IMG/VR virus record: IMGVR_UViG_3300027896_000011
Span: 32,001 to 96,000 of that record
Reading direction: 5' to 3' (one strand)
Length of the DNA stretch: 64,000 nt
From: a virus
The position numbers and the translations under genes were made by a program. Below the pieces are notes generated by a model that had not been told where the DNA came from, ran no database searches, and worked only from the letters and a program-made list of their open reading frames with translations. The first letter of the stretch is position 1; every line of letters starts with the position of its first letter. Shown piece by piece: positions 4,859 through 36,223 of this stretch.

Positions 4859-5248
4859 CTAACTACTCTTTGGTAGTGATGTCGCCATCACTAATCCAGA
4901 ACTTTTAGCTCGAAGTTGTTGTTCCATGTCTTTACATGCATTCATGAGATGCTCTACTACGTCTCTTACATCCGGCTGAGCTTCTACGTCAATATACGTA
5001 GTAGCTTTTATATAGATATCTCCACCACTCATAGACAACGGGAATGGAAATATTTTGGTACTAGCAGAAATACTAGGACCTTCTGCGCTCATCAATGCAA
5101 ACAATTGGTGATGAAAAATTCTAGCATTTCTCAGAAAAATAAATTCTCCTCTATCCATACTACGAATGAGTATATCGTTATCCTCGTCAACAAATCCTAC
5201 ATACATGTGCTGTGAGTTACTGTTTCCGAGAATTACTAGTCTGCTCAT
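4859..5248 (-). CDS. Hypothetical protein
   Basis: 129-aa ORF; start overlaps the helicase stop (ATGA). Confidence 0.65.
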   Translation of the reverse strand: MSRLVILGNSNSQHMYVGFVDEDNDILIRSMDRGEFIFLRNARIFHHQLFALMSAEGPSISASTKIFPFPLSMSGGDIYIKATTYIDVEAQPDVRDVVEHLMNACKDMEQQLRAKSSGLVMATSLPKSS

Positions 5249-7683
5249 TTCTTGTATCTCTCCAGTTCATCAAATGGTCGAAGGATTGTGTATTCAAATG
5301 GACCGCCTTCATCAACAGGCCATTCATTAATAAGTTTCTTTAATTGCCTACACATTTTGTGGAATTTTGGAATGAATACATGGTCGAGTATTACTACTAC
5401 TGGATGATTACCACCTCCGCGATAACCAAGTATGCGTCCCATACCTTGTTGTAGAGTGTTCTTTCCCCCCATATCAATAGCGCCACTACCAAACGGAGTA
5501 AGAAAGAACACAGTATCTAACGTTTTCTCATCTAGTGCTTCTTTAACTAATTGAAGCGTTCCAAATGTTATTTGTTTAGCCTTTAGCGTTTCTATTCTAG
5601 CTGCAGGCTTTTCATCCCCAGTACACAATCCTGAATCTGGGAACATAAGATGAAGCGCTCTTAGTTGATCTACGCTATGACTTAGAGCAAGTATCTTACG
5701 TCCTTTGCTGACTGGTAATTGAAGCTTGTCAGCAATAAACTGATTGTTGGCCGGAAGAGTACCAAGATAAGTCCTCAATTTAGGTATATTGAGTTTACCT
5801 CGAGTATCGTATACCCTGCTTGCAACTTCAGGGTCTCTCAGGTCTATTGTGATTGGGACTTCTTGAAGATAGATACGCGGCTTCACATCTTGAGCTAAAT
5901 CCCGGAAGAAGACAGGACCAATATGATATTGGTAGATAGGCTCCAGTCCATCTTCTCTATTTACTGTAGCCGTCAGTCCATATCTATTTCCATAGAACAT
6001 AGGAGCTGTGTGTATGAAGAGTGGAGCACTTAAATGATGGCAGTTATGCACCACTAGCCCATTAACCAGGTACGTATGTGTGTCTTCTACTTCAAGGTTG
6101 TAGACATAACCGTCTGGACACACCTCTCCAAATTCCGAGTCACTTCCCTGTTCGTAAACCTCAACACTGTCCACCCGAAACCATTTAGTAGCTCGTCTTT
6201 TCTCGCATCTTGGTCCTTCCTGCCCCAATGGGACCGACCATCTACCTCCACATTTATCATTCTCGATGGGCAGGCTATGTCTAGTTTGTAGTGTGTTGGA
6301 TAGCCCCCCTTGTGACGAGGTTTGTGTGTAGGCACTATGTACTCCAGGCACCAACCTTTTTGCTGTAATTGTAGAGCATCGTACAAGATCTTCTGTACCG
6401 TTGGGACGGCTGATCCATTTCCACCCCGTACTGGTGGGCGTAAATCCATGCTCTTTAGCTTCTTTTGTGTAGCTTTTCTTATCTTCAGGTCGAACATAGG
6501 ATTGTTCTTTTTCATTCTCTCTGAGAGGATGTCGGATCTCTGTATATTCGTCCTGCGCATTGTTAATGAGGATATTTTTCGACGGTACTCCATAGAGCAT
6601 GTTTGTGAACAGTAGGCTCTCCCTGATTTTTTGTAGCGGTCTATCTTGCTTTTCTGAGCCAGTATTATGCCCTTTCGGCATGTAGTGCATATTGTAGATA
6701 TGTTGTTCATTTTTAGTTCCTTTTATGTAGTCCCCTGCCGTTAAATTACCTGCTTTAACCCACCCAGTAGCAGTTAGGAATGGGTGAGGAATGGTGCAGT
6801 AGTAGGCCGCACCTTCTACATTTATCTTAACAAGGCACTTTGTTTTTCTTCTTGTTACGCCGATTACTTTTTTATCGACAAATATGTGCGTGCCTTCGTC
6901 ATATGAAGGCACAATGTCCCCAGGCACTATCTTTTCTATGGGAACTCCCCCTATAGGAGTACCTGCGATAAAGCACTCATCATAATATACACCACCAAAG
7001 TACCGATCAAATTTCTCTGGTAATTGTTCATAGCGTATAGCTAGCGTGTTAATCATCGCTAGTACTATTCCTCTTTCTTTCCAGTCCCATTTAGATGGGT
7101 CACCTTGTACCACGCCAACGCCTCCTTCAACATCTAAAAATTTCTCAATACGCTCTTTCCATTGATCTATGAGGGTGGTGTTATTTACGATCACTATTGC
7201 TGGTACACCTTTGTCGGCAATAACTTGTAAAGCTATCTGGGTTTTGCCGCGCCCACAAGCTAGATTAAGTATTCCCCCATCTATTTCTGACATAGCTTTG
7301 TGGGCTCTACGTTGTACATTTTCTTCCGGACGAAGAAAATCCAATACAATTTTGCTTTTGAATTTGATCTTAGTGTATTTAGTAGGTCCTATATCTATGA
7401 TCTGAAAAGGAGCATCTTTATATTGGCTTCTTGGTATGAATTCTCGTGGAACAATTATATGCGTGGCATTTTCTTCCCAAAGTTGCATGAACTCAACCCC
7501 AGTATCTGTCATTACAGGAAACTCGAGTCCTGCTTTTATAGACCTGGGGTTGATATGCTTTTTAGGAATCCAGAGTTGTCTTCCATAGTACCCTTTATCT
7601 GGGTCTAATTTGACTAGTCGTAATTCTGTATTATTTGAGTCGGAACACTTGCCAGAATCGATACCATTCATAGAATCCTCCAC
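5245..7683 (-). CDS. Superfamily 2 DExH helicase, intein-containing (about 501 aa spliced)
   Basis: Walker A LACGRGKT; spliced Walker B YYDE/CHH; motif III GLTAT; motif VI QQGMGRILG. Confidence 0.9.
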   Translation of the reverse strand: MEDSMNGIDSGKCSDSNNTELRLVKLDPDKGYYGRQLWIPKKHINPRSIKAGLEFPVMTDTGVEFMQLWEENATHIIVPREFIPRSQYKDAPFQIIDIGPTKYTKIKFKSKIVLDFLRPEENVQRRAHKAMSEIDGGILNLACGRGKTQIALQVIADKGVPAIVIVNNTTLIDQWKERIEKFLDVEGGVGVVQGDPSKWDWKERGIVLAMINTLAIRYEQLPEKFDRYFGGVYYDECFIAGTPIGGVPIEKIVPGDIVPSYDEGTHIFVDKKVIGVTRRKTKCLVKINVEGAAYYCTIPHPFLTATGWVKAGNLTAGDYIKGTKNEQHIYNMHYMPKGHNTGSEKQDRPLQKIRESLLFTNMLYGVPSKNILINNAQDEYTEIRHPLRENEKEQSYVRPEDKKSYTKEAKEHGFTPTSTGWKWISRPNGTEDLVRCSTITAKRLVPGVHSAYTQTSSQGGLSNTLQTRHSLPIENDKCGGRWSVPLGQEGPRCEKRRATKWFRVDSVEVYEQGSDSEFGEVCPDGYVYNLEVEDTHTYLVNGLVVHNCHHLSAPLFIHTAPMFYGNRYGLTATVNREDGLEPIYQYHIGPVFFRDLAQDVKPRIYLQEVPITIDLRDPEVASRVYDTRGKLNIPKLRTYLGTLPANNQFIADKLQLPVSKGRKILALSHSVDQLRALHLMFPDSGLCTGDEKPAARIETLKAKQITFGTLQLVKEALDEKTLDTVFFLTPFGSGAIDMGGKNTLQQGMGRILGYRGGGNHPVVVILDHVFIPKFHKMCRQLKKLINEWPVDEGGPFEYTILRPFDELERYKK
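6043..6975 (-). mobile_element. Intein (311 aa) in the DExH motif, with no in-frame endonuclease
   Basis: DE|CFIAGT...CTIPHPF...VYNLEVEDTHTYLVNGLVVHN|CHH. Confidence 0.9.
6087..6710 (-). CDS. Vsr/DUF559-like endonuclease nested in the +1 frame of the helicase intein
   Basis: YKLDIACP...VEVDGRSH...DARKDELLNGFGWTVLRFTNREV; N-terminal CxxC...YCSQTC zinc motif; RBS AAAGGA 7 nt before the ATG. Confidence 0.85.
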   Translation of the reverse strand: MNNISTICTTCRKGIILAQKSKIDRYKKSGRAYCSQTCSMEYRRKISSLTMRRTNIQRSDILSERMKKNNPMFDLKIRKATQKKLKSMDLRPPVRGGNGSAVPTVQKILYDALQLQQKGWCLEYIVPTHKPRHKGGYPTHYKLDIACPSRMINVEVDGRSHWGRKDQDARKDELLNGFGWTVLRFTNREVTRNLERCVQTVMSTTLK

Positions 7684-8047
7684 GGGCTGCCCCAGCTACT
7701 CCATCTTTTAAGAATCTAGTGATGGGGTTATCTGTTTCGCTTATAGGACCTGGAGCCCAGTTTGCGGATTCTACTCCACTACCTTGCGGTCTGTAGGGAG
7801 CAGTATACGCTCCTTGTGGGCGATAGGATGAATACGTTCTATTGGCGCTGGCCGAAGGAAATGACGATGTATAGGCAGATGCTACTCTAGGAGGTCCCAT
7901 AGCTGCGGCAGATGCTCTAGAAATCTCTGTTCTACAAGTATGTTGAAAACTACAAGCAGAGCAGTCCGCATCTCGGGTATCATAAGAGTCTGCATCCCCC
8001 CAGCAAGCTGGCCTTTCATTTACATTGACGCGATCAGCATAACTCAT
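7631..8047 (-). CDS. Hypothetical protein with an N-terminal Cys cluster
   Basis: CWG...CSACSFQHTC; first gene after promoter P1; RBS AAAGGA. Confidence 0.65.
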   Translation of the reverse strand: MSYADRVNVNERPACWGDADSYDTRDADCSACSFQHTCRTEISRASAAAMGPPRVASAYTSSFPSASANRTYSSYRPQGAYTAPYRPQGSGVESANWAPGPISETDNPITRFLKDGVAGAARGGFYEWYRFWQVFRLK

Positions 8048-8097
8048 TCAAATTTGGTTCCTTTCTGTTGGCGAATTAGGGGGTGTTAAGTTAAATG

Positions 8098-8127
8098 CTT
8101 ATACCCGCAATTTACAGTTATTTGCAC
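8098..8127 (-). promoter_or_regulatory. Phage-specific promoter P1
   Basis: GTGCAA-N18-TATAAG; the motif recurs at five sites. Confidence 0.7.
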
Positions 8128-8143
8128 ATCCTTATAGTCTTTG

Positions 8144-8173
8144 TTGACATACCTTGTAATAGGAACGTACTAT
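8144..8173 (+). promoter_or_regulatory. Sigma70-like promoter for the rightward structural operon
   Basis: TTGACA-N18-TACTAT upstream of 8196. Confidence 0.55.
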
Positions 8174-8195
8174 CATAGGAAATACGGAGACCCTT

Positions 8196-9386
8196 ATGCG
8201 AACAGGCACCATCATCGACTTTTATGATGACCCTACTGGGTCTGTTCTTAAAACTAAAGTAGCTCATACACAACTACCTGATTACATCAGGTCTTCGAGC
8301 TATCAAACTGAAGAAAAGCTGGCTTCTTTGCCTGATGATGCCTTCGCTTTGATCATGGTGGATAACGGGAAGGCTATAAGAAAGTTTGCTTGTGTAGATA
8401 AAGGCAATACTGCGCTATCAACTTTGTACTTTATGGAGAACAAAGATAAGTTGCCGGAAGAAGCTATGAAGGTAGCTGCAGCAAATCTGTTTGGGTACTG
8501 CCTTGCTTTTGGAATTGAGCCCCCTTTGCAGCTCGAAAAAATAGCCAACCAGCTTCCTAAGTTTAAAGAGAAGAAGGGGGATTTGATCGGCTCAACAGTA
8601 ATGCCTCTTCAATCTAACCCTAATAAGGCTGATGATCCTGATAGTCAGCTTAATGCTACTATTAAAAAGACAGCTGCAACTTTGTATGTAGACGTGACTG
8701 GTAAGAAACCGGTTTCTAAATTCGTAAAGCAGGCGCATTCTAATTACGCTTTACATAAATACGGTCAAGGACAGTTCCCTCTTGATTCTTATGGTGATGT
8801 GCTTGAAGCTAACCGTTGGTTTGAAGAGAATGGTAAGACACTACATCCTTCTGAACGGAAAGAATACTGTACTAAGGTAGCAGCAAAAGCTGATCAATTA
8901 GGTATCTCAGTAACTAGTACTCTTCGTAAATATGCTAGTTCTTCTTTTGCTCCGGAAAATGAAATACGGGCAGCAGTTAGTACTCGTATGCAATTCTGGC
9001 AAAGTGACGCACCAGAACGTAATGTACTACAAGGTATGCTTGATAAATATGCCAGTGTAAAACCGGATGTGTTTTGTGCAGCACTTAACGCATTTGACAC
9101 CGATCACGATTTACAGCATTATTGGGATGACTACGTGATAGACCCGTGGGCCTCTACGTATGGAATGGATAAGACTGCGGAGTGGAGTTGGGAACAGGGA
9201 GCGGATAGGCTCACAGAAGATGTATTGAAGCAGGGTGTTAGAGACGGTAAGAAGATTCATGAAATAAAGGCCAAATTCGGGAACGACCTGGCGAGTGAAA
9301 TCGTTGAGAGCCCGAGTACGGTATTTGATTCCATGCCACTGGATTCAAAACGTATACTTGCCAGGATTCTCAACGACTCACAATAA
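8196..9386 (+). CDS. Putative head-associated protein with two DUF6582-like repeats
   Basis: LPDDAFAL...RKFACVD and YAL...QFPLDS...KADQLGI resemble the LPSKSFA...KYPIHD motif of ORF 54692; K-x-A sites present. Confidence 0.5.
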   Translation: MRTGTIIDFYDDPTGSVLKTKVAHTQLPDYIRSSSYQTEEKLASLPDDAFALIMVDNGKAIRKFACVDKGNTALSTLYFMENKDKLPEEAMKVAAANLFGYCLAFGIEPPLQLEKIANQLPKFKEKKGDLIGSTVMPLQSNPNKADDPDSQLNATIKKTAATLYVDVTGKKPVSKFVKQAHSNYALHKYGQGQFPLDSYGDVLEANRWFEENGKTLHPSERKEYCTKVAAKADQLGISVTSTLRKYASSSFAPENEIRAAVSTRMQFWQSDAPERNVLQGMLDKYASVKPDVFCAALNAFDTDHDLQHYWDDYVIDPWASTYGMDKTAEWSWEQGADRLTEDVLKQGVRDGKKIHEIKAKFGNDLASEIVESPSTVFDSMPLDSKRILARILNDSQ

Positions 9387-11450: not shown

Positions 11451-12292
11451 AGCACATTACTGAATTACATTTGGCTGGTATGCTAAGCGAGCTAAAAAAA
11501 GAAGCTGGTGTTGCATCAGATATTGCTTCACGTGGTCTTCAAATGCTTCGCAAGGTACCTACGTTACCACTTGTGAGTAGGATTCCTGGTATAAATTCTA
11601 GAGTAGGACAGACCCTTGCTGGCGGTGCATTAGGTGGTGCTATCGGTGCTGCTACTGGTGAAGAGGGCGATAGACTTCATAGAGGTGTAATGGGTGGGTT
11701 GTTAGGAGCAAGTGCTGTAGGTCTTGGGCACATGGCTACACAGAGTGGTAGAGATGCTGCAAAGAAATCTATGGGGAATTTATGGCAGAGGTCTAAATAC
11801 CAATTTACTGGTAAAGGTCTAGAAGGTACGCCGGAAGCTAGGATATTAAAGGCCAGAGAGATTGGTCTTATTCCTGAAGCAGGTAAAAATAAAGCTGTAG
11901 ATGCTGCACAAGAACATGCATTGAAAAATGATTGGTTATCATTACCTGGTGCGGTACATGGTCTAGTTACTCAACCCGGACAAGTATTAAAGAATTCTTG
12001 GAATAGAATGGATACAATGGGTAAAGGGCTTACTGCTGCAGGTGGAGCGATTACTGCCGCAGATATGATACAAAAGCCAACTCCAGAAGGTCCCGGTAGA
12101 TTAGAAAAGGGATTGGGTGGATTAGCTTCAACTATAGGCTTTACTGCAGGACCTGCAGGTATCTTACCGGGCATGTTGATGGGTAGTTGGGCAGGTAAGG
12201 CAGGACAAAGGGTTGGACGTGTGGGGGATAGATTGTTAGGGTACAACCCTGCAGCTGAGGCAGCGCCTATGTATGAAGGGGCTGTACAATGA
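11447..12292 (+). CDS. Glycine-zipper putative virion protein
   Basis: Start MKHITE overlaps the previous stop (ATGA); MLSELKKEA tag; GGALGGAIGAATG-type segments. Confidence 0.6.
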   Translation: MKHITELHLAGMLSELKKEAGVASDIASRGLQMLRKVPTLPLVSRIPGINSRVGQTLAGGALGGAIGAATGEEGDRLHRGVMGGLLGASAVGLGHMATQSGRDAAKKSMGNLWQRSKYQFTGKGLEGTPEARILKAREIGLIPEAGKNKAVDAAQEHALKNDWLSLPGAVHGLVTQPGQVLKNSWNRMDTMGKGLTAAGGAITAADMIQKPTPEGPGRLEKGLGGLASTIGFTAGPAGILPGMLMGSWAGKAGQRVGRVGDRLLGYNPAAEAAPMYEGAVQ

Positions 12293-15200
12293 GTGTAGGT
12301 TTAGGCGGCGCAGATTCCTCTGCACTTCGTTTCTCTAGAACTCGAGGTCGTACTGGAGCTTCTTCTGATTACGGGCTACAGTACCCTAGTCCTTTTTTTG
12401 ATATCGGGCAAACGTATTTACCCGCCACTATTAAACAGATGTTTAGGTGGTGTCGGTATTACTTCTTAGTTAATCCATTGATCAATGCAGTGGTAGCTAA
12501 GATGGCGGATTATCCTGTTACTGATATTATTCTAGATACTGACAAGCCGGATTTAAAAGAAAAGTGGTATCACTTTTTAGATTCACAGCTTAGGTATCGT
12601 CCTTTTCAGATTGAACTAGGACTTGACTTTTATGCCTATGGTAATGCTTTAGTTAGTATCTTTTATCCGTTTATAAAGATGCTTAGGTGTAAACGTTGTG
12701 GGCATGAGAAACCTGCAGCGGATGCTACATATCGATTTCAGAATTTTGAATTCCACTGGGAGTGTTCTAAGTGTAGCCATGCTGATATTGCTACTGTAAG
12801 AGACCATTACGTTAAGGCACCTAAAGGTATACGTCTTTTACGTTGGAACCCGGAAGATATAGATATCAGATATAATGATATTACTGGGGATACGGAATAC
12901 TATTATACGATTCCGGTACAGATCAAAAATGATATTATTATGGGGAAGAAGTCTACTGTAGAGACTATGCCTCAGCTCTTTATCGATGCTTTAAGGCTAA
13001 GAAAAGCCGTAGTGTTTTCTCGAGACAACATCTATCACTTCAAGCGGCCTACATTGGCCGGAAAAGATAGAGGTTGGGGTACTCCTTTAATACTGCCAGT
13101 ACTTAAGGATACCTACTACCTCCAGGTCCTGCGAAAAGCTCAGGAATGTCTTACACTTAGCTCTCTTTTAGAGAGGCCATTTGATCTTTGTAAAGCAAGC
13201 GAGATTAGGATTGGAGACCTAGTAAAGACGCATACAGGAGCGTATAAACGGGTAACAGATATTCGTCCTAAGCTCATAAACGAACAAAACGGTGGTTTTA
13301 CGGTACAAGTAGCTACTAAGGCTATGAAAGCTTTTCCGACCGGTTATTCTGACAATCATCCTCTCTATGTATTGCGGAGAGAAGAATTGGCCACTGGGTG
13401 TAGGGCGAATAAGCACATCAATACTAAGTATGTTCGGCGTTATACAGACGAGTATGCGCCTAAATGGGTAAATGCTGGAGATGTCAAACTTGGTGAGTAC
13501 GTAGTTTATCCTATAGATAGGCTAAAGAACACATCCGGGGAGGTATTGGATATATCACAGTATACTGGATTGCCAGCAACAACAGACTGGGTATATCAGC
13601 AATCATCTAAAGAAACAGTAGATGCGTACGAGGCTCTTGAGCAGGGAGACGAACTTCCGTGGGCTGATAACGCCCAACATGCAGCGCATACCCTTCATAA
13701 TAGGGGAAAGACGCCTCCACGGGTAAAGAGGTATATCTCATTAGACGAAGATCTTGCTTACTTATCCGGGTGGTTCATCGGAGACGGCAGTACAGGTGAC
13801 CGACAAATAAGCATAGCTCTAGGGCTTAAGGACGATTATAAGCTTCTTGCTAAGGCATTTAAAAAGGTATTTGGTAAGGAGCCTAAAATCTCTAAGAGTA
13901 AGAGATTTAATGGTCGTTTACTTGTTCACAGTGATGTGATTGCGACTAAATTTATGCGTGGTTGGATACCTGGTGATGCACACACTAAGAGCCTGCCAAA
14001 AGAAATTCAGCAAGCTCCAGACCAAATATTATTGTCTTTCCTACGAGGATATGTTGAGGCAGATGGGTGCTTTCATAACGACCTTGATCGAGTAACATTT
14101 ACTTCGGTAAGTCCTCAGCTTGCTTATCAAGTATGGAAGCTTCTTATTTCTCTTCGATGTGTGGCTAGGGTATCCAAGAGAAAAGAATCGCAATCAATTA
14201 TTGAGGATAAGCTTGGACGTAGAAACAAGGCTATAAGTGGTGTCTCTTATGATATAGTCTTAGATGGGTCATCTGGACGTAGATTACGTGCGCTTTTGTA
14301 TGGTGGAGAAGTTGAAGACGCAGCCGGAGGGCATACAGGATTTTTTCACGGGGATTATTTTGCCTCTCCTATTTGTAATTGGGAACGCCTAACAGAACAG
14401 CACGTATTGAGTTTTGAAGTAGAAGATGATCATACTTTTTGCACTCCAGGAATGGTGACGCATAACAGCATCGCGCTCGAGCACATTGTGCCGCTACGCG
14501 TCTTATTCCCACAAGCCGGGTCGGCCTCCTCGGACCCATACTGCGTTGCGTTAGATAGCCTTGTAGAGACTCGAGAAGGAATATTTCCTGCTGGGGAAGT
14601 CAAGAAGGGTGACTGGCTAAAGACACATACAGGTGCGTGGAAGCCTGTTGAGGCCGCCGTAGATCGTAAAATTCGTACTGGTGAGAAGGTATACGAATTT
14701 TCTATTGCTTCTCTTAGTGCCTTTCCATTTAAGGTATCTGAGGAGCACCCAATACTCGCTGTAAAGCGGCCCTCAAGATTTAGAGGCTATGAGAGCCTTA
14801 CCGAAGAACCGGACTATATTGAGGCCAAGAATATTGACGAGGGGGACTTTGTTTGTTACCCCAAGCATAGAACCGTTTGGGATAGTCTTGACCTAGATCT
14901 TCACGAGTACTGTCCTGAGCGTGCATTCACTGCTGAGTATATGTACCGTAGGTTAGATCAACAGTCTGCGGACATCTATGAGTACTTTGAGGCTAATGGT
15001 GTGCCTAGCTTTGCTCATGGAGAACGTAAGACCTTCTTGGCCGACAAAGGTTGGACCGAAGATTACTACAATAATGCTAAGGCGGTGTTTAGCCAGCAGG
15101 AAGCTGTTGATAGGATTCCTAGGTATCTGCCAGTTACAAAAGACCTGGCGTACGTAGTAGGTATGTATGCGGCTGAAGGTAGTCAGAAGGATTTAGGTAT

Positions 15201-18200
15201 TTCTTTTAGTCTTAATGCGGCTGAAGATTCCATCATGGGCGCTTTGGACTCTGCGCTACAAGGGATGGGGTTTGCTAGTGGGCACAGATACATACGAGAT
15301 AACTCCGCGCAGTACGATGTTGGTGATGTATTTTTGGGCAGCTTACTGCCTCAGCTGTGTGGCAAAGGTGCCCAAAATAAACGATTACCAAGGTTTATTG
15401 TTGAGGCTCCAGAAGAGATTGCGCTTCGTGCAGTAGAGGCAGTGTTTCTAGGTGATGGTTGTTCAATAAATAGTAAAACTCGTAGAGAAGGATTAAAGAC
15501 TGTCAGCCCTCAGTTAACTATAGACGTGCGTGCCATACTACTTTCTTTTGGTCTAATAGCTAATGTACAAAAGAGTATTCCTGGGGAGCACGAGATAGCT
15601 AAACTTCCGTACTACCAAGTCAATTTAAACGGATCACAGGGAGACGCCTTCGCTAACCTGTGTAGTAGCGGAACGCGTACACACAAAGGATTCAGTAGGT
15701 GTGGGTTTGTTCGTGGTGATTATGTCTATCTGCGGGTAAGTAAAAAATCAGAATCTCCAGATGTCAAAGTAGTACGTGGCTTCCAAATCAAAGGAGATAA
15801 GTCCTTCTGTATTGTTGGCGTAGCTACGCACAATACGAGCGTGAATCTTCAAGATTGGCACGATCAGATCGCAGGAGAATTACGTCGTTGGAGAAGCGAT
15901 AATTCGTATATTCCTATTCTTCCGTTACCTATTGGACAACAGACCATAGGTGGTGATGGTAGAGCTCTGCTTCTTTCACAAGAAATACGAGTATGGAGCG
16001 AACATATTATTGCGGGTATGGGTGTCCCAACGGAGCTCATTTTTGGTGGTCTCTCGTATTGTCAAGCTCCTGATACTCTCTTGTTTACGTCTCACGGTCT
16101 CGAGACATTAGAAGAGCTGACCCCAGCTGAAGAGGGGCAAGGGACATCAAATCGCAAAGTAGTAAGCCATATGGGCGTGAGAGACGTTGTTAGAACGCAT
16201 CACGTAGGTCTTAAAAAGGCAGCGTCGGCAAAAACTAGGCTTGGTCTGGAACTTACTGGAGCGTATACGCACCCCGTGTATGTACTACAGCCAGATTTAA
16301 CTATGGCATTTAAAACTATGGAGGAATTGAAGCCAGGAGATAGAGTGGCTGTAAAAGCGGGAGCTAACCTTTGGCCTAAGGACACACCTAAAATTGACTT
16401 TCATACGACAAAATCTGGAGACCGGTTTGAGGACGTTACTATCCCACAGGAGTTAACTCCAGAATTAGCCAGACTTTTGGGATATTTAATAGCAGAAGGT
16501 TCTTGTACTGAGGCGCGTAGAATTGGCTTTGGAAATTCTGATCAAGAAGTAAATACTGACTTTGCAGATTGCGTAGAGGCTGTGTTTGGATACCGTCCAA
16601 AGTTCCATCTAAATCTAAGTATGCCTGTAACCACCAAACCATTTTATCAGACTGAGATATCAAGGCAGCAGGCAACTGAGTTTCTCTACGCATTAGGTAT
16701 CGGTGGTTATGCTGCTGAAAAAACGGTACCTAGAATTATACGTCTTGCTCCTAAGCATCTTGTAGCAGAGTTTTTACGAGCTTATTTTGAAGGAGATGGC
16801 GGGTCAGAGGACGTAGAAGACAAACAAGCAGTTACCGCCTGTTCAATGTCGGGTAGACTCCTTCAAGAAATACAGCTATTGATGCTGAATATGGGTATTG
16901 TTACTTCTAGGTATTTCCCAAGAGTTAAGTCAACGTTCACACTACAAGCCAGGTCAGAGTATGTAGATATTTTTGCAAAAGAGATTGGGTTTATTTCCAG
17001 CTGTAAAAAAAGAATACTTTCACAGAGAACCCCTACTAGAGGATCTTCTTGTCTATCATCTCAAATTCCATATCTAAAAGAGAGATTAGAGGAGTTTAGA
17101 GATCGTCATTTTGAGAATAGGTCTTCGTGGAAGTTTGAATCTGTAAACGTTGAGTTGCTGCAGGAACAGTATACTGTTGATGAGATTGCAGTACTTACAA
17201 ACAGGGAACGCTCTACTATATTGCTGCACATTAATTCTGGAGCACTTACAGCGGTAAAGCAGCCATCTGTACAAGGTAGATTTGCTGCATATACTGTCAG
17301 TCGTCAAAATTTAGAATATTTTCTTAAACATCATGGTTTAGGTAGACGTAGAACAACACCAAAGAGTTTCTGGGGCATGAGCTATGAGAAGCTAGCTACT
17401 AAAGATCTTTCTTTTATTAAAGAAAAAGAGCCTGATTTTGCTCGGCGTATAGAAAATTTAGCTGAGATGCGTTTAATCTGGGATGAGGTACAGGAAGTAA
17501 ATCTTTTGGATATAGAAATTCCTATGCGTGATTTGACGGTGGATGAGGCTTCTACGTACCAAGGTAACGGTGTAATTAGCCATAATTCCGGATCAAATGT
17601 ATCTTTACGTATGCTTGAGAATATGTTCCTTGGTTATCTTTCCGATCAATTAGCTTTACTTCGTTGGATAATCGAAAAGACTGCCTCATACCTTGGTTGG
17701 GCTAAAGTAGGAGCTAGGTTCAAGCCATTTAAGATGGCAGATGATCTGCAGAGAAAGGCATATCTATTCCAGCTTAATCAAGCCGGAAAGATATCAGATG
17801 AGTCTCTTTGCTCTGATGCTGATTATGATTCATCTAAAGAAGATGCGATCATGGAGAACGAAGCTACTCGTCGCATAGGAGCGATGAAGAAGCAACGATT
17901 GCTTCAAGCAGAGATGGAAGGCGAAGCAGCTATGGTCCAGCAGAAGTGGCAGACCAAAGCACAGAATAAAGCTATGTCAGAACAAATGGCTATTCAAGGA
18001 GAAGCGGCTAAAGATCAAATGGCATTCCAATCTCAGATGCAAAATGGAATGATGCAAGATCAAATGGCTGTTCAAACAGGACAAGAAGCGCCACCTAAAA
18101 CTCCAGATATGATGCCTGCTCCTCGAGACCCATCGTTGTTATCTGTACCTAAGGGGATTACCTCTCCATTAACACTACAAAGTGTTCAACAGCATCCAGT

Positions 18201-18471
18201 TTCTGCGTCTAATGCAGATATAGCTGGTGGGCAAAATGTAGACCTGTTGTTTATGGCTAGAAAATTAGCTGATAAGTTTTCTAGACTTAACCCCGGAGAG
18301 AAACCAGTAATGTTAAGTAGGCTTAAAGAACTTAATCCTATACTGTATTCTACGGTTACAGGGCTAATGATGAGCGGAGGGAATGGACCCACCGCTGCAG
18401 CTCAAGCCTCTGCGAGGCCGTTGCCATTGCAACGAACACCCCGCAGAGGATCTGAAGCTGCTCAAATCTAG
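12289..18471 (+). CDS. Portal protein with three inteins (about 680 aa spliced)
   Basis: NPLINAVVAKMADYP, FYAYGNAL, IYHFKR...GWGTPLI, IIAGMGVP-ELIFG, coiled-coil C-terminus; all portal-like motifs. Confidence 0.8.
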   Translation: MSVGLGGADSSALRFSRTRGRTGASSDYGLQYPSPFFDIGQTYLPATIKQMFRWCRYYFLVNPLINAVVAKMADYPVTDIILDTDKPDLKEKWYHFLDSQLRYRPFQIELGLDFYAYGNALVSIFYPFIKMLRCKRCGHEKPAADATYRFQNFEFHWECSKCSHADIATVRDHYVKAPKGIRLLRWNPEDIDIRYNDITGDTEYYYTIPVQIKNDIIMGKKSTVETMPQLFIDALRLRKAVVFSRDNIYHFKRPTLAGKDRGWGTPLILPVLKDTYYLQVLRKAQECLTLSSLLERPFDLCKASEIRIGDLVKTHTGAYKRVTDIRPKLINEQNGGFTVQVATKAMKAFPTGYSDNHPLYVLRREELATGCRANKHINTKYVRRYTDEYAPKWVNAGDVKLGEYVVYPIDRLKNTSGEVLDISQYTGLPATTDWVYQQSSKETVDAYEALEQGDELPWADNAQHAAHTLHNRGKTPPRVKRYISLDEDLAYLSGWFIGDGSTGDRQISIALGLKDDYKLLAKAFKKVFGKEPKISKSKRFNGRLLVHSDVIATKFMRGWIPGDAHTKSLPKEIQQAPDQILLSFLRGYVEADGCFHNDLDRVTFTSVSPQLAYQVWKLLISLRCVARVSKRKESQSIIEDKLGRRNKAISGVSYDIVLDGSSGRRLRALLYGGEVEDAAGGHTGFFHGDYFASPICNWERLTEQHVLSFEVEDDHTFCTPGMVTHNSIALEHIVPLRVLFPQAGSASSDPYCVALDSLVETREGIFPAGEVKKGDWLKTHTGAWKPVEAAVDRKIRTGEKVYEFSIASLSAFPFKVSEEHPILAVKRPSRFRGYESLTEEPDYIEAKNIDEGDFVCYPKHRTVWDSLDLDLHEYCPERAFTAEYMYRRLDQQSADIYEYFEANGVPSFAHGERKTFLADKGWTEDYYNNAKAVFSQQEAVDRIPRYLPVTKDLAYVVGMYAAEGSQKDLGISFSLNAAEDSIMGALDSALQGMGFASGHRYIRDNSAQYDVGDVFLGSLLPQLCGKGAQNKRLPRFIVEAPEEIALRAVEAVFLGDGCSINSKTRREGLKTVSPQLTIDVRAILLSFGLIANVQKSIPGEHEIAKLPYYQVNLNGSQGDAFANLCSSGTRTHKGFSRCGFVRGDYVYLRVSKKSESPDVKVVRGFQIKGDKSFCIVGVATHNTSVNLQDWHDQIAGELRRWRSDNSYIPILPLPIGQQTIGGDGRALLLSQEIRVWSEHIIAGMGVPTELIFGGLSYCQAPDTLLFTSHGLETLEELTPAEEGQGTSNRKVVSHMGVRDVVRTHHVGLKKAASAKTRLGLELTGAYTHPVYVLQPDLTMAFKTMEELKPGDRVAVKAGANLWPKDTPKIDFHTTKSGDRFEDVTIPQELTPELARLLGYLIAEGSCTEARRIGFGNSDQEVNTDFADCVEAVFGYRPKFHLNLSMPVTTKPFYQTEISRQQATEFLYALGIGGYAAEKTVPRIIRLAPKHLVAEFLRAYFEGDGGSEDVEDKQAVTACSMSGRLLQEIQLLMLNMGIVTSRYFPRVKSTFTLQARSEYVDIFAKEIGFISSCKKRILSQRTPTRGSSCLSSQIPYLKERLEEFRDRHFENRSSWKFESVNVELLQEQYTVDEIAVLTNRERSTILLHINSGALTAVKQPSVQGRFAAYTVSRQNLEYFLKHHGLGRRRTTPKSFWGMSYEKLATKDLSFIKEKEPDFARRIENLAEMRLIWDEVQEVNLLDIEIPMRDLTVDEASTYQGNGVISHNSGSNVSLRMLENMFLGYLSDQLALLRWIIEKTASYLGWAKVGARFKPFKMADDLQRKAYLFQLNQAGKISDESLCSDADYDSSKEDAIMENEATRRIGAMKKQRLLQAEMEGEAAMVQQKWQTKAQNKAMSEQMAIQGEAAKDQMAFQSQMQNGMMQDQMAVQTGQEAPPKTPDMMPAPRDPSLLSVPKGITSPLTLQSVQQHPVSASNADIAGGQNVDLLFMARKLADKFSRLNPGEKPVMLSRLKELNPILYSTVTGLMMSGGNGPTAAAQASARPLPLQRTPRRGSEAAQI
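13147..14466 (+). mobile_element. Portal intein 1 (440 aa, LAGLIDADG)
   Basis: AQE|CLTLSS...LSGWFIGDG...FLRGYVEADG...THN|SIA. Confidence 0.92.
14542..15834 (+). mobile_element. Portal intein 2 (431 aa, LAGLIDADG)
   Basis: DPY|CVALDS...VVGMYAAEG...VFLGDG...THN|TSV. Confidence 0.92.
16060..17586 (+). mobile_element. Portal intein 3 (509 aa, LAGLIDADG plus HTH insert)
   Basis: LSY|CQAPDT...LLGYLIAEG...FLRAYFEGDG...SHN|SGS. Confidence 0.92.
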
Positions 18472-19718: not shown

Positions 19719-22700
19719 TTGGCACGCATTGCACCGGAAGAGGGGTTTGAACTCCTCAAAGACCGAGTACAAAAAGCAGTCAGTGGATTCTTCCCCATAA
19801 TCGGGCGGAAGAATACGCTAGAGCTCCATGATATATCGGTTAAAGATAACCTGAATATCGATGATATTAGGTCCCAGAAACACGCTAAGTTGAGTGGTCG
19901 TTCCTGGACTGTACCAGTAGAGGCAACTATTGCCCTAAAGGACAATACTACTGGGTCGATAATCGATAAACAGAAGATGAACTTGCTTAACCTGCCTAAG
20001 GTTACAAGACGCTATGGCCATATCGTAGATGGCCAGGAGTATCAGATAGATAACCAGTGGCGCTTAAAGCCCGGTATCTATAACATGGTTAAACAAGACG
20101 GAGCTATTGAGTCTCACTTTAATGCGGCAGGAGGCTTTAAGATACATTTTGATCCAAAGTCTCGTCAATTTACATTGAACTATGGTAATTCTAATATGCC
20201 TCTTAGACCCTTCTTACACGCCATGGGGGTGTCTGAAGAGGAAGTAGAAAATCGTTGGGGTAAAGATATCGCTACGGTTAATCATGCTGATAGTTCTAAA
20301 GAACTTATTAAGTTTTATAGAGCATCCACTGGGGATAAGACCGTTAAGCCCACTATAGATGAGGCAAAGTCTCATTTGTGGGATGTAATGCAAAAGACGG
20401 TACTACGTCCGGAAGTAACTAAATTTACTCTAGGTAAAGAATATACAAACGTTACTGGGCATACGCTTTTAGATGCGTCAGATAAATTATTGAAGATATC
20501 TAGAGGCGAAGCGCAGCCAGACCCTAGAGACGCTTTGATGTTTAAAGATCTCCATTCAATTGAAGATTTTGCAGCAGAACGTCTTATTAAAGGTTCTAGA
20601 GAAATTCTTCGTAAAGTAAATAATAATATTGATCGTAAAGATAAAGTACGAGACATCATAGCTCCAGAAATATTTAATCGTCCGATCAAACAGATGTTTG
20701 GAAAGAATTCCTTAGCAATTGTTACTGATCAGACTAACCCGTTAGAGATGTTCTCCGCTAATATGAAGACCACCATTATGGGAGATGGTGGTATTAAATC
20801 AGAGCATACTGTTTCAGATGAGGCGAAACTTATAGATCCGTCTCATTTAGGATTTCTTGATCCAATACACACTCCCGAAGGATGTTACGATTCTGAGACA
20901 GAGGTCTACACAAAGACTGGCTGGAAGAAGTGGATAACCGTAACAGAGCAAGATCAATTAGCTTGTCGAGTAGACGGTAGATTAGAGTTTCACCTCCCTA
21001 CAAATCTGATCAATGCCCCATATAAGGGGAAAATGTATGGGGTAAATACCGCACGAAACAAGCAGCGTAGAAAGAGAGAAATTGATTATTTAGTAACGCC
21101 CAATCATAGAATCTACTGTCGTACTAGAGACCTCAGGGGAAAGGCCCTATTTCGTATAGAGACCGCAGACGTGGTGCACGGTAAAGCTAGAGACTTAGAA
21201 CTTGGGCATGACCCGTATCTAGGTTCCAAAGAAACGGGCGTATTTCATTTGCCTTACGTAAAGGGAAACAACTCTTCAAAGAACGTAGACGAGATCAACA
21301 TAGGTGACTGGGCTCAATTTATAGGGTGGTTCCTGTCTGAGGGGAATTGCACGTATGATGATGTAGGTTCCCACTATAGTGTCTGTATTTCACAGAGTAT
21401 AGTTACGTCTAGAACTAACTGCGAAATTATTGAGGCGCTGCTCGATAGGTTACCCTTTGCTTGGAGTTTTTCTGAAAGAGAAGATGGTAAACGCACCTAT
21501 CGGGTAAGTACAAAGCAGCTAGCGCATTATGTCTCTCAGTTTGGACTTAGTTACAATAAGTCCATACCAGAGTACTTTTTCGAATGTTCTGTGGAAACAC
21601 GAGAATATTTATTAGAAGCACTGCTGTTGGGGGATGGCAGGAAAAACTCACATAGGGCTACTGGCGCATCTTATAAACAGCTAGTATACTGCACAGTTAG
21701 TCCACAACTCGCTCTAGATGTGGAGCGCTTAGCAATAAGCTTGGGGCGTCCCGTATCTATGTGCCGGTATGCAGATGACCGAGAAGAGCGATATAGAGAC
21801 GTTTATGAGGTACGTTTACTGTGTCAAACAAAACGAGAAATTCAAGGCGCTAAAGGACACTTTTATACCTCTGAGTACGACGGCACTATTCACTGTGCAA
21901 CTGTTCCAGGAGGGCTACTGTACGTACGCAGGGGAACGGGGTTAGCACACTGGAGCGGTAATAGCGCCACAGGTATCACACTGCGTTTACCTTTAGGTGT
22001 ACATAAAATAGGGCATGATGTTGCTATTAAAATGTACAATACAAAAACTGGAAAAGTTGAAAACGTCAATCCTACTGTCGCTTATAAATCTCATATAGCT
22101 CTGCCAGATCAAATTACTTGGGAGGGCAATAAACCTAAAGCTGCTGGTAAAGTTGTAAAAATTAGTGGGCCGGGTAATGAAATATATGATGGTACGTTAA
22201 AAGATGCTGATTATGTAATGAAGAGTCCGATGCAGATGTTTTCCATCTCATCTAACATGATTCCTTTCATGCCGTCAGATCACCCTAATCGTAGTACCAT
22301 GGCCGGAAGACAGATGGAACAGGCTATCTCTCTAAAACATAGAGAAATCCCCTTAGTACAAAGCTTGGCCGGTAAAGAAAGTTTTGATCGTATACTTGGA
22401 AGCTTTGCCAGTCATAGCGCAACTGTTAGTGGTACAGTATCAAAGATAAAACCAGACGCTATAGTAATTAAGAGACCTAACGGTACTAAGGAAGAAGTGT
22501 TCATTTATGATCACTTTCCACTTAATGAAAATAAAGCGTTTATGCATGCAGAGCCTTTAGTAAAGGTCGGAGATAAAGTAACTAAAGGGCAAGTTATAGC
22601 TGATACAAATTACACTAAAGATGGCGTATTAGCTATAGGTACTAATTTACGTACAGGGTTTATGCCTTATAAAGGATATAACTTTGACGATGGTATTGTA

Positions 22701-25700
22701 GTCAGTGAGAGTGCAGCTCAAAAATTAACCAGTGAACATCTTCATAGACATTCATTAGAACGAGATGTATCTCACATTTTGGATAAGAAGAAATTTACGG
22801 CTTATATGCCTACTGTACTGAATAAAACTCAGTACGATAAATTAGATGAAGAAGGCGTAATCAAACCAGGCACTGTCGTAATGCCGGGAGATACTCTAAT
22901 AGCAGCATTACGTGCTTCAAATAATCCGGAACGTAAAGAAGATTTAGAACTTTCAAAGTTACATAAGTCTATTGTTAAACCATATAAAGACTCGAGTATT
23001 AAGTGGGAAAGCGATTACCCAGGAGTAGTTAAAGAAGTAGTTAAGATTGGTAAGAATGTTTCTGTACACGTAAAAACTGAAGAAGCCTTAGACATCGGAG
23101 ATAAGCTCTGTTACGACGAAAAGCACGAACTATTGACTACTCGTGGATGGGTTCCGGTAAAGGACGTAAAGGTATCTGATGAGGTGTGTTCACTCAACCC
23201 GGAGACTGACGCGATAGAGTACCTGTGCCCGGAGAAGACAGTCAGCTATGATTGTGTAGAGGATGATCTGTACGTCTTGGAGACTACACAAGTGTCTATG
23301 GCTGTCACCATGGAGCACAAAACATATGCAAAGCCTAGGGGAGCGGATAGGCACAGCCTAATTCCAGTCTCTCAGTTAGTAGGTAAGCGTTATCATTTAA
23401 AGCAGCACGGTAAATGGGTGGGGGAAGACAGAGAGACATTTGAGTTCCCCTCTATGGTAGTCAAGGCTGGGCAGAGTGGTAATGGTACCAGAGTGCTGCC
23501 ATCAATACAGATGCCGATGGACACATTCTTAATGCTTCTAGGAATGTACTTGTCGGAGGGCAACAATTATGGTGGTAACGGCGACTACTACATAGAAATC
23601 ACTCAAATAAAGCAACCAGGAAGAGCTCAGACAGAGGAGGCTCTGGCATTAGCAGGAATACGTTTTACGCGTACTCCTGAAAAGATACGCATACACGGTA
23701 AGCAGCTGTATGAGTATTTCGTGCAGTTTGGGCATGCGGTAAATAAATTTATTCCTGATTGGATTTTTCAGCTTCCGAAAAAACGGTTACAGGTTCTGTA
23801 TAAATGGTTAATGTGGGGGGATGGCTGTGAAAAAGGAACCACACACGTATACACCACTATATCCCCTCAGCTAGCCGATGATGTACAGCGTTTAGTTTTC
23901 CATCTTGGTAAGGCAGGCAGAGTGGTGTGGGAGCCTGGTTATCGTGGCCAGATAGAGGGCAGGTATTACGATTTTAAGCCTAGATATAGAGTTAGGGTAA
24001 TACGCACTAAATTAGAGCCCACAATAAATCACGGGCACTCTAATTCACAAGGCGGACAAAAAGAAACTATAGAGAAGTACACCGGTAAGGTGTACTGCGT
24101 GGCTCTTCCACGTAATCACGTACTCTACACACGTCGAAATGGTAAATGCCACTGGTCTGGTAATACGGCGCGCCACGGCAATAAAGGCATAGTGACACGG
24201 ATCATACCTGATCATGACATGCCCCATACTAAAGATGGTAAGCATTTAGAGGTGTTGTTAAACCCGTTAAGTGTTATGGGTAGAACTAACTTAGGTCAAG
24301 TATTAGAGGTTGCTGCAGCCAAAGTGGCGGAGAAGACTGGTAAACCTTATATGGTTAAGAACTTTTCTCCGAATACAGATTTACATGCCCAAGTCACTGC
24401 TGACTTAGCCAAGCACGGTTTGACGGATAAAGAAGAAGTTATAGACCCCGTTACAAATAGAGTAATGGGTAATGTGCTTGTAGGACCTATGCACATTTTT
24501 AAGCTCCACCATCAGGTGGAAAAGAAGCTTAGTGCTCGAGCAGGTGGTTATGGGTATGACTACGATAAAGATATGATTCCTAAAGGTGGTGGCCCACGAG
24601 GAGCCAAGTCTCTCGGAACACTAGGCCTTTATTCTATGCTGGCGCATGGAGCGACATCTAATCTGCGGGAAATGCAGACTTATAAAAGCGATGCGTCACA
24701 AGGTGATCAATTCTGGTCTGCTCTCCAAGCTGGAGAGATGCTTCCTACTCCTAAGCCGACCTTTGCTTACAATAAATTTCTTGGGTACATCAGAGGACTT
24801 GGTGTAAATGTTCAGAAAACAGGTAATAACCTTACGCTTATGCCTATGACTGACAAGCAGATCATAGAACAAAGCAATGGTGAGATTACCGACCCCGCTA
24901 AGTCAGTCACAGCTAAAAATATGAAGCCTGAAATAGGGGGATTATTTGATCCTAAAGTTACAGGTGGTATTGATGGTACAAAATGGGGCTTTTACACACT
25001 CCCAGAATCTATGCCTAACCCCGTATTCGAAAGTGCTATTACTCGTTTGTTGGGAATGAAGCAAAAAGAGTTTGCAGGCTTAATTGGTGGTACGTTAGCA
25101 GTAGACCCAAAAACCGGAAAGATAGGAGATTCTCAAAAAATTGAGGGAGGGCTGGTTGGTGGTAAAGCCTTTGCTCATATGCTTAGTAAAATAGATGTGA
25201 AAAAGGATTTAGCTGCTGCCAAAGTAGCGCTAGATAAACCGACATTAAGAGGGACGTATCTTGATCATGCTAATAGTAAAGTAAAACTACTAGAGGCTTT
25301 AAACAAGGTTGGTATGACGCCAGTAGAAGCGTACATGTCTAAAGTCATTCCTATATTACCGCCATCTATGCGACCTGTTCCAGTGTTGCCTAATGGTACT
25401 ATTAGTGAAGAAGATTTGAACGGTCTTTATAAGAATCTTCATTTGTCTGCGTCTAGATACGCGAAGATGTCTCCATTGATTCCAGAAGATGATCAATCTA
25501 AAGTAGAGATTCGACAAGAAGTCTATGATGGTTTACGAGCAATAGCTGGACTTGGTGGTTACCCACATCAAATTCGTAGAGGAATCTTAGACTACATACA
25601 TGGTAAGAAGATGGACACTCGTACGGATGCTAAGATAGGTTCTCCTAAAGAAGGATTCTTTCAAGATAAATTGGTTGAACGTAAGCAAGATATGTCTATG

Positions 25701-32992: not shown

Positions 32993-33113
32993 GTTGAAAC
33001 CGGCTAACGCCGGTCAACCAACTTTGATTAAGGGTCTGTATGCGAACAACACATAACAGACCCTACCAAGTTGGCAGAGTGACAAATTGAGATTAAGATC
33101 TCCCTTTTGTCAC
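32993..33113 (-). ncRNA. Putative structured small RNA
   Basis: Three adjacent hairpins, no ORF, directly downstream of promoter P3. Confidence 0.5.
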
Positions 33114-33117
33114 AATA

Positions 33118-33147
33118 CTTATACCACAATGTGGTAAGATTTTACAT
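33118..33147 (-). promoter_or_regulatory. Phage-specific promoter P3
   Basis: ATGTAA-N18-TATAAG(TAT); the -35 box overlaps the terminase ATG on the opposite strand. Confidence 0.65.
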
Positions 33148-36100: not shown

Positions 36101-36223
36101 AAGACAGATGATGCATTCCATTCACATCTACTCTGTCTGTTAGCTTCTTGTTTAGAGCATCCACGTCCTGATATCTTTACACCTATGCAAGATACCGGAT
36201 TAGTAGAAAACTATGATGGCTAA
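33146..36223 (+). CDS. terL: Terminase large subunit (GpA-like), intein-containing
   Basis: Spliced Walker A CGRQIEK/STT; Walker B VLIDE; SGTP; Zn insert CERH..CDKC; nuclease YAGIDWG and DDAFHS. Start at MATIR is likely. Confidence 0.9.
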   Translation: MATIRIDEADVLNSARAIPLSHTMDGSDIPSFDYNEAGEAQDFGLDLEPEDIEEEEYNASSALIGVSPSEFAETIIRVPEAGRVSDFSFEGREYLRQIYDTPADKVLLQCGRQIEKCCHVASKISMEDGSVKKLEDIVLGDRVIGLALDKSHTDVGTVIWKSEKITKFCVKIKTRQGHVTIVALSHPMRGWNNWSLTGSLSEQEHLAVVRKAGWFTATTNFSDREVILAAYMVAEGYMPEENICTFTQKEGPVLQEFLSLVEGDDYSTNERKPGLWHIRFNAKSQVLALIKKIGIWAELSANKHVPDFVWGLDQRQTALFINRLWAGDGHASLQESCYHLEYDSISELLIKDVQRLLWKFGIPSSTHRWKPTLYKNTDKWAYKLRIETQDGAIRFIQDIGALGKTEDIPIIDVDTNSNRDVYPIGIVEDISTIHRSRSGYQRRGQYVPQPSLRSAGLREKPRFLLSRDKLRQYVDFFRSDDRFDQVKTEQLARHLDTDLYWDEIVSIEEVGEQDCYDITVEGTDSFVADGFITHNSTTLGNRLLCYAALISNFRSIYVAPSAEQAKVFSNDRIKDVIDASPMLRSYTSSKINQAVFFKKFINYSQIRLRYAYLTADRVRGIPADMVLIDELQDILVDNIPVIEQCAFHSSYKIFLYSGTPKSVDNTIAHYWSDFSTQNEWIVPCERHGLPNDSSTWHWNILTERNIGSVGLICDKCGETISAKHPLAQWASMNPMTEDNRDKVTFEGYRIPQIMVPWVDWEEITIAQEQYSRSQFMNEKLGMSYDSGVRPITRAQIQAICRPELEMGDIEQFKRLSQGRAIYAGIDWGAGANSSYTHISFGGYLGSGNFTIFWCHRFTGQDVDPENQMELITQMLSQLQVRIIGVDYGGGFYPNDKLIKRFGAHKVMKYQYNPRQKKKIYWEPNLKRWMTHRTEIMSDLFNAMKAKKIDLPRWEDYKEPHASDVLNIFIEYNDRLRINEYKKPPGKTDDAFHSHLLCLLASCLEHPRPDIFTPMQDTGLVENYDG
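33494..34750 (+). mobile_element. Terminase intein (419 aa, LAGLIDADG)
   Basis: IEK|CCHVAS...AAYMVAEG...LWAGDG...THN|STT. Confidence 0.92.

Follow-up and report, generated by a model that had tools for sequence, protein, structure and literature searches.

The helicase intein described here carries a nuclease gene in a second reading frame of the same strand. It lies in a stretch of 64,000 nucleotides (nt) from a metagenome-derived viral contig (positions 32,001 to 96,000 of IMG/VR record IMGVR_UViG_3300027896_000011), hereafter the window, in which all coordinates are given. The host gene encodes a phage DNA helicase of superfamily 2 (SF2) with a DExH box. We consider it very likely that the whole constitutes a composite selfish element: an intein of the class-1 type, with the halves of its Hint splicing domain ~170 residues apart, and a homing endonuclease gene of the free-standing type that occupies the spacer in the +1 frame. 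The features concerned are listed below (ORF, open reading frame; aa, amino acids; a slash marks a splice junction).

5245..7683, minus strand: uninterrupted ORF of 812 aa, precursor of the SF2 (DExH-box) phage DNA helicase
6043..6975, minus strand: intein in helicase motif II, 311 aa, host aa 237-547; YYDE/C1...HN311/C+1HH
6706..6975, minus strand: N-terminal half of the Hint splicing domain, intein aa 1-90, with Cys1 and block B (T61-x-x-H64)
6190..6705, minus strand: host-frame linker, intein aa 91-262, a stop-free wrong-frame translation of the nuclease gene
6043..6189, minus strand: C-terminal part of the Hint domain, intein aa 263-311; RVDSVEVY...VYNLEVEDTHTYLVNGLVVHN
6087..6710, minus strand: nested +1-frame gene, 207 aa, with a zinc-ribbon-like N-terminus and a predicted DUF559/Vsr-like (EDxHD-type) nuclease; stop codon at 6087-6089
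6718..6723, minus strand: Shine-Dalgarno (SD)-like AAAGGA, 7 nt upstream of the nuclease ATG (6708-6710)
6087..6189, minus strand: dual-coding module, nuclease aa 173-207 (GWTVLRFTNREV...STTLK) and Hint aa 263-297 (RVDSVEVY...VYNLEVE)

The helicase ORF matched the Pfam families ResIII and DEAD as well as the PHROG family phrog_16 (DNA helicase, E = 8e-30). The intein begins with CFIAGTP and ends with VVHN, followed by CHHLSAP of the extein, so that motif II reads YYDE/intein/CHHLSAP. Inspection of the sequence found all intein signature residues (C1, T61-x-x-H64 of block B, H310-N311 and C+1), and Pfam matched the intein at its two ends only (PT-HINT, E = 1e-9; Intein_splicing, E = 2e-9). An earlier reading of the DNA by eye (the first-pass annotation) had described intact splicing blocks around a middle without recognisable motif, and this description is borne out. 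In an alignment of 106 host-frame inteins of the family, C1, H64 and N311 were invariant and T61, H310, Y302 and V309 nearly so. AlphaFold2, run with this alignment, predicted beta strands for aa 1-90 with a predicted local distance difference test score (pLDDT) of 91-98, and aa 263-311 likewise scored 90-98. The region between, aa 91-262, scored 43-63 and was modelled as coil without secondary structure, i.e. it is predicted to be disordered. Foldseek aligned the model to mini-intein splicing domains (Mtu RecA, RadA, DnaB and BIL2) at a probability of 1.00 and a template modelling (TM) score by target of at most 0.81. These results support the segment 6043-6975 as a contiguous intein with both Hint halves and the splice residues intact. 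It would be expected to splice, because the residues needed are present and, as described below, selection holds the host frame open.

The nested ORF matched DUF559 (E = 7e-15, residues 140-203). Profile searches of the two frames thus placed the nuclease family in the +1 frame and Hint/intein splicing in the host frame, in agreement with the zinc-motif and Vsr/DUF559-like nuclease that the first-pass annotation had read at 6087-6710. A collection of 5.8 billion proteins contained 58 homologs, mostly near full length (~200-250 aa), the best with E = 4e-70 and 58% identity. In an alignment of 35 homologs, the N-terminus was rich in Cys (CxxC...YCS..C) and the motifs NNPM and GGNG were conserved; in the C-terminal nuclease, D144, D157, G158, H161 and D168 were invariant and E155, G179, W180, R184 and F185 nearly invariant. 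The AlphaFold2 model, built with the homolog alignment, had a mean pLDDT of 91. Its top folds in the PDB were the DUF559 protein 3hrl, the catalytic domain of I-Bth0305I (3r3p; TM by target 0.62-0.72, probability 1.00, E about 1e-2) and Vsr (1cw0). Note that the Foldseek E-values for these folds were merely 3e-3 to 8e-2, because the C-terminal half of the nuclease alone matches. The family profile aligned to 3hrl with E = 1e-11. Pfam, the invariant residues, the predicted fold and the profile matches together identify the nested ORF as a predicted DUF559/Vsr-like nuclease of the type that Taylor et al. 2011 named EDxHD; its place in the I-Bth0305I lineage proper is tentative.

Both frames are open across the 624 nt of the nested ORF, as had been noticed at first reading. 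The host frame contains no stop codon and the third frame contains 18. When the nested ORF was shuffled among synonymous codons, 7.2 host-frame stops were expected, with a probability of 1e-4 of finding none. Shuffling its codon order gave 9.7 expected stops and redrawing its codons by extein usage gave 18.3. The double openness of the window locus is not due to chance.

The same pattern holds across the family. Selection was tested on 106 loci whose nucleases were <80% identical to one another. In all 106, the host frame was free of stops over the nuclease ORF, compared to a mean of 8.9 expected (mean probability of none, 0.002). Thymine at the third position of a nuclease codon (T3) was found in 0 of 6504 cases before codons beginning with AA, AG or GA, compared to 24% elsewhere. 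Members of the family that are not nested mostly had 5-35 stops in the corresponding frame; three were nearly open, with 1-2 stops. Pairwise ratios of nonsynonymous to synonymous substitution rates against the closest nested relative (58% identity) were saturated, and codon-position entropy and frame-wise identity were used instead. Column entropy at nuclease codon positions 1, 2 and 3 was 1.27, 1.14 and 1.63 bits; variability was highest at the wobble position of the nuclease and lowest at position 2, where the host frame has its wobble. Over the linker region, mean pairwise amino acid identity was 0.385 for the nuclease frame. It was 0.187 for the host frame and 0.189 for the unused third frame, which served as control. 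Conservation in the linker is limited to a few residues (L229, Q230), which reflect the HYK motif of the nuclease. These data support purifying selection on the nuclease frame, as the first-pass annotation had predicted for the middle region. The host frame in the linker is selected merely to stay open, because stops are avoided while its identity equals that of the control frame.

The situation is different in the last ~100 nt of the nuclease gene, where its C-terminus overlaps the intein segment VDSVEVY...YVYNLEV (6087-6189), an overlap already recognised in the first-pass annotation. Here both encoded segments belong to confidently predicted folds in the AlphaFold2 models of nuclease and intein. 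The nuclease motif GWxVLRF was co-encoded with the host strand RVxSVE in all loci printed, which were drawn from ten distance classes. The Trp codon lay exactly 131 nt from the intein end in 68 of the 106 loci; in the remainder this spacing was shifted by in-frame indels in the loop before VYNLEV. Family-wide, reading VY[DN]LEVEG.HTY in the +1 frame gives the nuclease tail STTSK....TPTS. The codon periodicity was flattened in the overlap (1.40, 1.26 and 1.43 bits). Host-frame identity in the overlap did not exceed that of the control frame (0.297 vs 0.321, with columns aligned by nuclease), owing to the indels in the loop between RVxSVE and VYNLEV. Flattened periodicity, co-occurrence of the motifs and two confident folds together indicate dual constraint; the final ~100 nt are a case of true dual coding of folded parts of both proteins.

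The nested arrangement recurs widely. A pattern scan of viral contigs with the single nuclease protein gave no match, but profile scans did match: 80 metagenomic and 80 IMG/VR loci were returned, with at least 311 and at least 307, respectively, confirmed among the first 600 pattern matches. The closest nuclease homolog (P0001) is found on four JGI contigs, +1-nested inside an intein of the same helicase family. A homolog with 44% identity (P0002) is likewise nested, in a different ResIII/Helicase_C protein of 790 aa. A second frame of the same strand was open across the entire nuclease ORF in 149 of the 167 loci fetched. In these 149 loci the nuclease was always +1 relative to the open host frame, which closed with ...VYNLEVE..H.Y.ANG.LVHN/C and continued into helicase motifs. 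Intein boundaries were set in 132 loci. The N-terminal junction was DE/C in 126 of these inteins; the C-terminal junction was HN/C in 115 and HN/S in 6. Intein length ranged from 263 to 410 aa, and the nuclease typically started ~85-100 residues into the intein (range ~27-155). Its stop was nearly always ~3-18 residues before the intein end, and in four loci 3-4 residues beyond it.

Intein-free alleles of the insertion site exist. Five IMG/VR phage helicases (L167-L171), with a C-extein 62-86% identical to that of the window, have DEVHHLSAP or DEAHHLSAP and no intein at this position, the intein-bearing allele having Cys at the site of Val or Ala in the empty ones. This presence/absence pattern fits a homing element and leaves the event undated. 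One of these helicases (L167:2001-4292; C-extein 85% identical) has another intein in its P-loop, LNLS/CLSGDT...IIVTN/CGKGKT, with an in-frame HNH-like motif. Thus, two different inteins target two motifs of one helicase family.

The same nuclease family also occurs in other architectures. Free-standing nucleases lie directly upstream of intein-less SF2 helicase genes in six loci (L019, L028, L032, L039, L113 and L118), which ties the family to helicases even without an intein. Four loci (L038, L046, L051 and L165) are fractured genes with a split intein; L038, for example, has three ORFs, of which one encodes the N-terminal helicase part joined to intein-N, a second the nuclease and a third intein-C followed by Helicase_C. 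L061 (2420-3136 and flanks) is nested in a VDEAH/C...VSN/S helicase, and its host frame is interrupted by exactly one stop, close to where the nuclease begins; a nascent split intein, a pseudogene and a sequencing error are all conceivable. In L140 the N-extein and intein-N are in frame with the nuclease. L078 (2039-3838) is a single UvrD-type helicase ORF whose Hint halves flank an in-frame DUF559/Vsr-like domain, without the zinc-ribbon N-terminus. It came from the fetched loci; a search aimed at longer proteins with the nuclease fused in gave no match, which is weak evidence. A single T3 change that is silent in the nuclease can close the host frame, which places the nested form one step away from a split intein. 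The evolutionary direction among nested, split, free-standing and in-frame forms can be suggested from sequence comparison, and invasion of a mini-intein by a nuclease gene is a plausible order of events, given that free-standing and split-intein relatives exist.

How would the nuclease be made? The ribosome-binding site named in the first-pass annotation (AAAGGA-N7-ATG) was found at 6718-6723, before the ATG at 6708-6710. Across the family, an SD-like core was present 4-13 nt before the chosen nuclease start in 44 of 106 loci, a fourfold enrichment over the background of 11%; the window locus, L003 and L005 are among those that have it. In the window, the nuclease frame is closed by a TAA (6723-6725) 4 codons upstream of its ATG, and the nested ORF terminates 14.7 codons before the intein end. 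In the family, the nuclease frame is open for a median of 7.5 codons upstream of the start. Because of the nearby upstream stop and the end of the ORF short of the intein C-terminus, independent internal initiation of the nuclease appears to be the most economical reading.

We propose that ribosomes in the helicase frame would read the nuclease gene out of frame and produce a disordered linker. The Hint halves would then fold and excise the entire insert, restoring the DE-C-H helicase. Translation of the nuclease would begin independently, at its own SD and ATG on the strand shared with the helicase. By analogy with its family, and given its residence in a mobile intein and the presence/absence polymorphism, it presumably cuts the intein-free DEVH/DEAH alleles of co-infecting relatives, and repair of the cut allele would copy intein and nuclease in. 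Selection would preserve the nuclease protein and bar the host frame from stops alone, by way of T3 avoidance before AA-, AG- and GA- codons.

Several observations speak against this proposal. The closest nested relative is just 58% identical, and therefore recent homing of the window copy is not demonstrated. The match of the nuclease family profile to I-Bth0305I (3r3p) is marginal (E = 0.014). Just 44 of the 106 relatives have the SD-like motif, and the choice of start codon was heuristic. In a promoter and terminator scan of 5000-8200, sigma-70-like sites were not enriched (8 vs 7.1 expected), and the phage-promoter motif TATAAG was absent from inside the helicase gene; the nuclease must therefore start internally on the helicase mRNA, amid ribosomes in another frame. 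The distance to the nearest relative and the lack of an internal promoter signal would also suit a relic, that is, an intact-looking nuclease ORF, unexpressed or no longer homing, in a vertically inherited element. We regard this as improbable: every family-invariant nuclease residue is retained, the nuclease frame is under purifying selection across 106 diverged loci, a silent ORF of 207 codons would be expected to gather stops, and the intein-free alleles among close relatives fit ongoing gain and loss. Location on the same strand and mRNA would equally allow programmed +1 ribosomal frameshifting, by which the nuclease would be produced within the precursor and act as an in-frame intein domain; the reading frames of L140, in its N-extein and intein-N, and of L078 throughout are in line with this. 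However, the upstream TAA leaves 12 nt for a shift, the short open stretch upstream is general in the family, a shifted product could not splice since the nuclease ORF ends before the intein C-terminus, and the SD and ATG are conserved. We rejected a frameshift fusion on the grounds of the TAA, the unspliceable product and the separate SD and ATG, and consider it highly unlikely.

Equally unlikely is a functional host-frame linker, such as a regulatory or conditional-splicing module, with both frames selected throughout. Such a module would explain why the host frame is strictly open and why it is somewhat rich in Asp/Glu and disorder-promoting residues compared to the control frame (0.573 vs 0.500). 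It is contradicted by a host-frame identity no higher than that of the control frame, by conserved residues that merely mirror the nuclease, and by the lack of a Pfam match together with the low-confidence coil predicted despite an alignment of 106 sequences, and was rejected for these reasons. Finally, the metagenomic origin of the contig raises the question of an assembly or sequencing artefact, in which two compensating indels would push an in-frame nuclease domain out of frame. This explanation is hardly credible, as the +1 relation recurs in 149 independent loci, some of them in completely sequenced cultured phages, the nuclease begins and ends with codons of its own, and indels cannot produce a total avoidance of T3 before AA, AG and GA codons; it was likewise discarded.

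The composite element belongs to a kind of intein already described. Gosselin, Arsenault and Gogarten (bioRxiv 10.1101/2025.01.02.630785) reported actinophage inteins with an endonuclease outside the intein frame, either an antisense LAGLIDADG, an antisense Vsr-like or a same-strand, frame-3 endonuclease VII-like enzyme. Their hosts were genes for DNA polymerase, minor capsid protein, terminase and thymidylate synthase, with no helicase among them; the architectures were called rare, and the second ORFs were typically outside the splicing domain. As in these inteins, a contiguous intein in the window is combined with an out-of-frame endonuclease, read as invasion by a free-standing gene. The Vsr-like/EDxHD-type nuclease of that study is antisense, whereas the one in the window is same-strand and +1. 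In addition, the window family resides in the DExH box of SF2 helicases and always overlaps the C-terminal Hint strands, and the nested state is not rare but that of the majority of the nuclease family (149/167 loci). Phillips, DeSimone and Gogarten (bioRxiv 10.64898/2026.09.14.751524) described a LAGLIDADG nuclease encoded by a '+2 ORF' of a cyanobacterial dnaX intein, with low omega in the nuclease frame, a relaxed host frame and secondary invasion of a mini-intein; as cited there, an out-of-frame intein endonuclease was already described by Gorbalenya (1998). The overlapping ORF within the intein and the frame-dependent selection are common to both cases, but the dnaX intein has a LAGLIDADG enzyme, a bacterial host and a +2 label, in contrast to the DUF559/Vsr-like nuclease in a phage helicase. 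An in-frame Vsr-like intein nuclease, as in L078, is not described in either preprint.

The nuclease itself resembles enzymes known from two other settings. Dassa et al. 2009 (PMC2677866) found free-standing Vsr-like nucleases between split-intein halves, mostly in phages, with a 3' overlap of 6-69 bp with intein-C. The window nuclease is of the same superfamily, lies between Hint halves and overlaps the intein-C coding region with its 3' end. In the fractured genes, the host frame is stopped and restarted and two polypeptides trans-splice. In contrast, the host frame in the window is not split into two ORFs but runs through the nuclease gene, so that one precursor would splice in cis. I-Bth0305I, the prototype EDxHD homing endonuclease (Taylor et al. 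2011, PMC3239194; PDB 3R3P), is encoded by a recA group I intron. Both it and the window nuclease end in a Vsr-like catalytic domain, whose acidic and His residues are conserved, and both are encoded inside a self-splicing element of a phage gene for DNA metabolism; I-Bth0305I also has an N-terminal DNA-binding region. The window family differs in its Cys-rich, zinc-ribbon-like N-terminus, its location in an intein and, as noted, the marginal sequence match. Full-text literature searches turned up no earlier account of a helicase intein with a Vsr-like nuclease nested inside it on the same strand. With a contiguous intein, an ORF in another frame and selection in the endonuclease frame, the window locus has all the characteristics of the described kind; its nuclease family, orientation and host gene appear to be new, and the combination appears to be common.

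The other inteins of the window that were checked are of the conventional type. The first-pass annotation had taken the endonucleases of eight further window inteins to be in-frame domains; as far as this was checked, it holds for at least three plus-strand ORFs with LAGLIDADG inteins (12289-18468, 33107-36220 and 39321-42272), one of which encodes the terminase large subunit. The helicase intein is the sole case of an out-of-frame nuclease among the window inteins checked. Elsewhere, a single plus-strand ORF of 2768 aa (19719-28022) combines RNA polymerase domains of the Rpb2 type (beta) with those of the Rpb1 type (beta').

Existing annotation mostly conceals the nested gene. By tblastn, the nuclease was found in 41 GenBank phage records, including those of Vibrio phages CP-T1, 24 and Rostov M3, many Vibrio lentus phages, Corynebacterium phage phi673 and Pseudomonas phage MR14. 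Each of the 25 matches listed fell over a single feature, named helicase or with a generic label. Two of the records were inspected (CP-T1 and phi673); both annotate the spanning helicase coding sequence and not the nuclease. Metagenome gene calls show the reverse, the nuclease being called and the helicase truncated: the stored calls for L005 (1358-3730) and L001 (3-1538) comprise the nuclease and the C-terminal part of the helicase, and the N-terminal helicase/intein part is uncalled. Automated gene calling therefore systematically breaks such genes, with gene callers dropping either the nuclease or part of the helicase.

On balance, we favour the view that same-strand +1 nesting is the normal and stable state of a very large phage element, a Vsr-like nuclease combined with a DExH-box helicase intein, which exists in hundreds of diverged copies mostly missed by annotation and has a fixed dual-coding module of ~100 nt, where a core strand of the nuclease (GWxVLRF) shares its DNA with a Hint strand (RVxSVE). 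It would represent the missing intermediate, one mutation away, between contiguous and split inteins, since one nuclease-synonymous change can close the host frame and the family includes free-standing, one-stop, fractured and in-frame relatives.

The locus is a clean example, provided by nature, of same-strand overprinting over a long distance (624 nt), in which one frame is selected for its protein and the other for openness, and the 'junk' product of the host frame would be taken out after translation. The family provides a large comparative series for the model of a free-standing nuclease invading an intein and for the evolution of split inteins. Hint domains may tolerate a disordered insert of ~170 aa, which could be useful in intein engineering. 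The cultured phages that carry the element are places where translation, splicing and homing of such elements can be examined.

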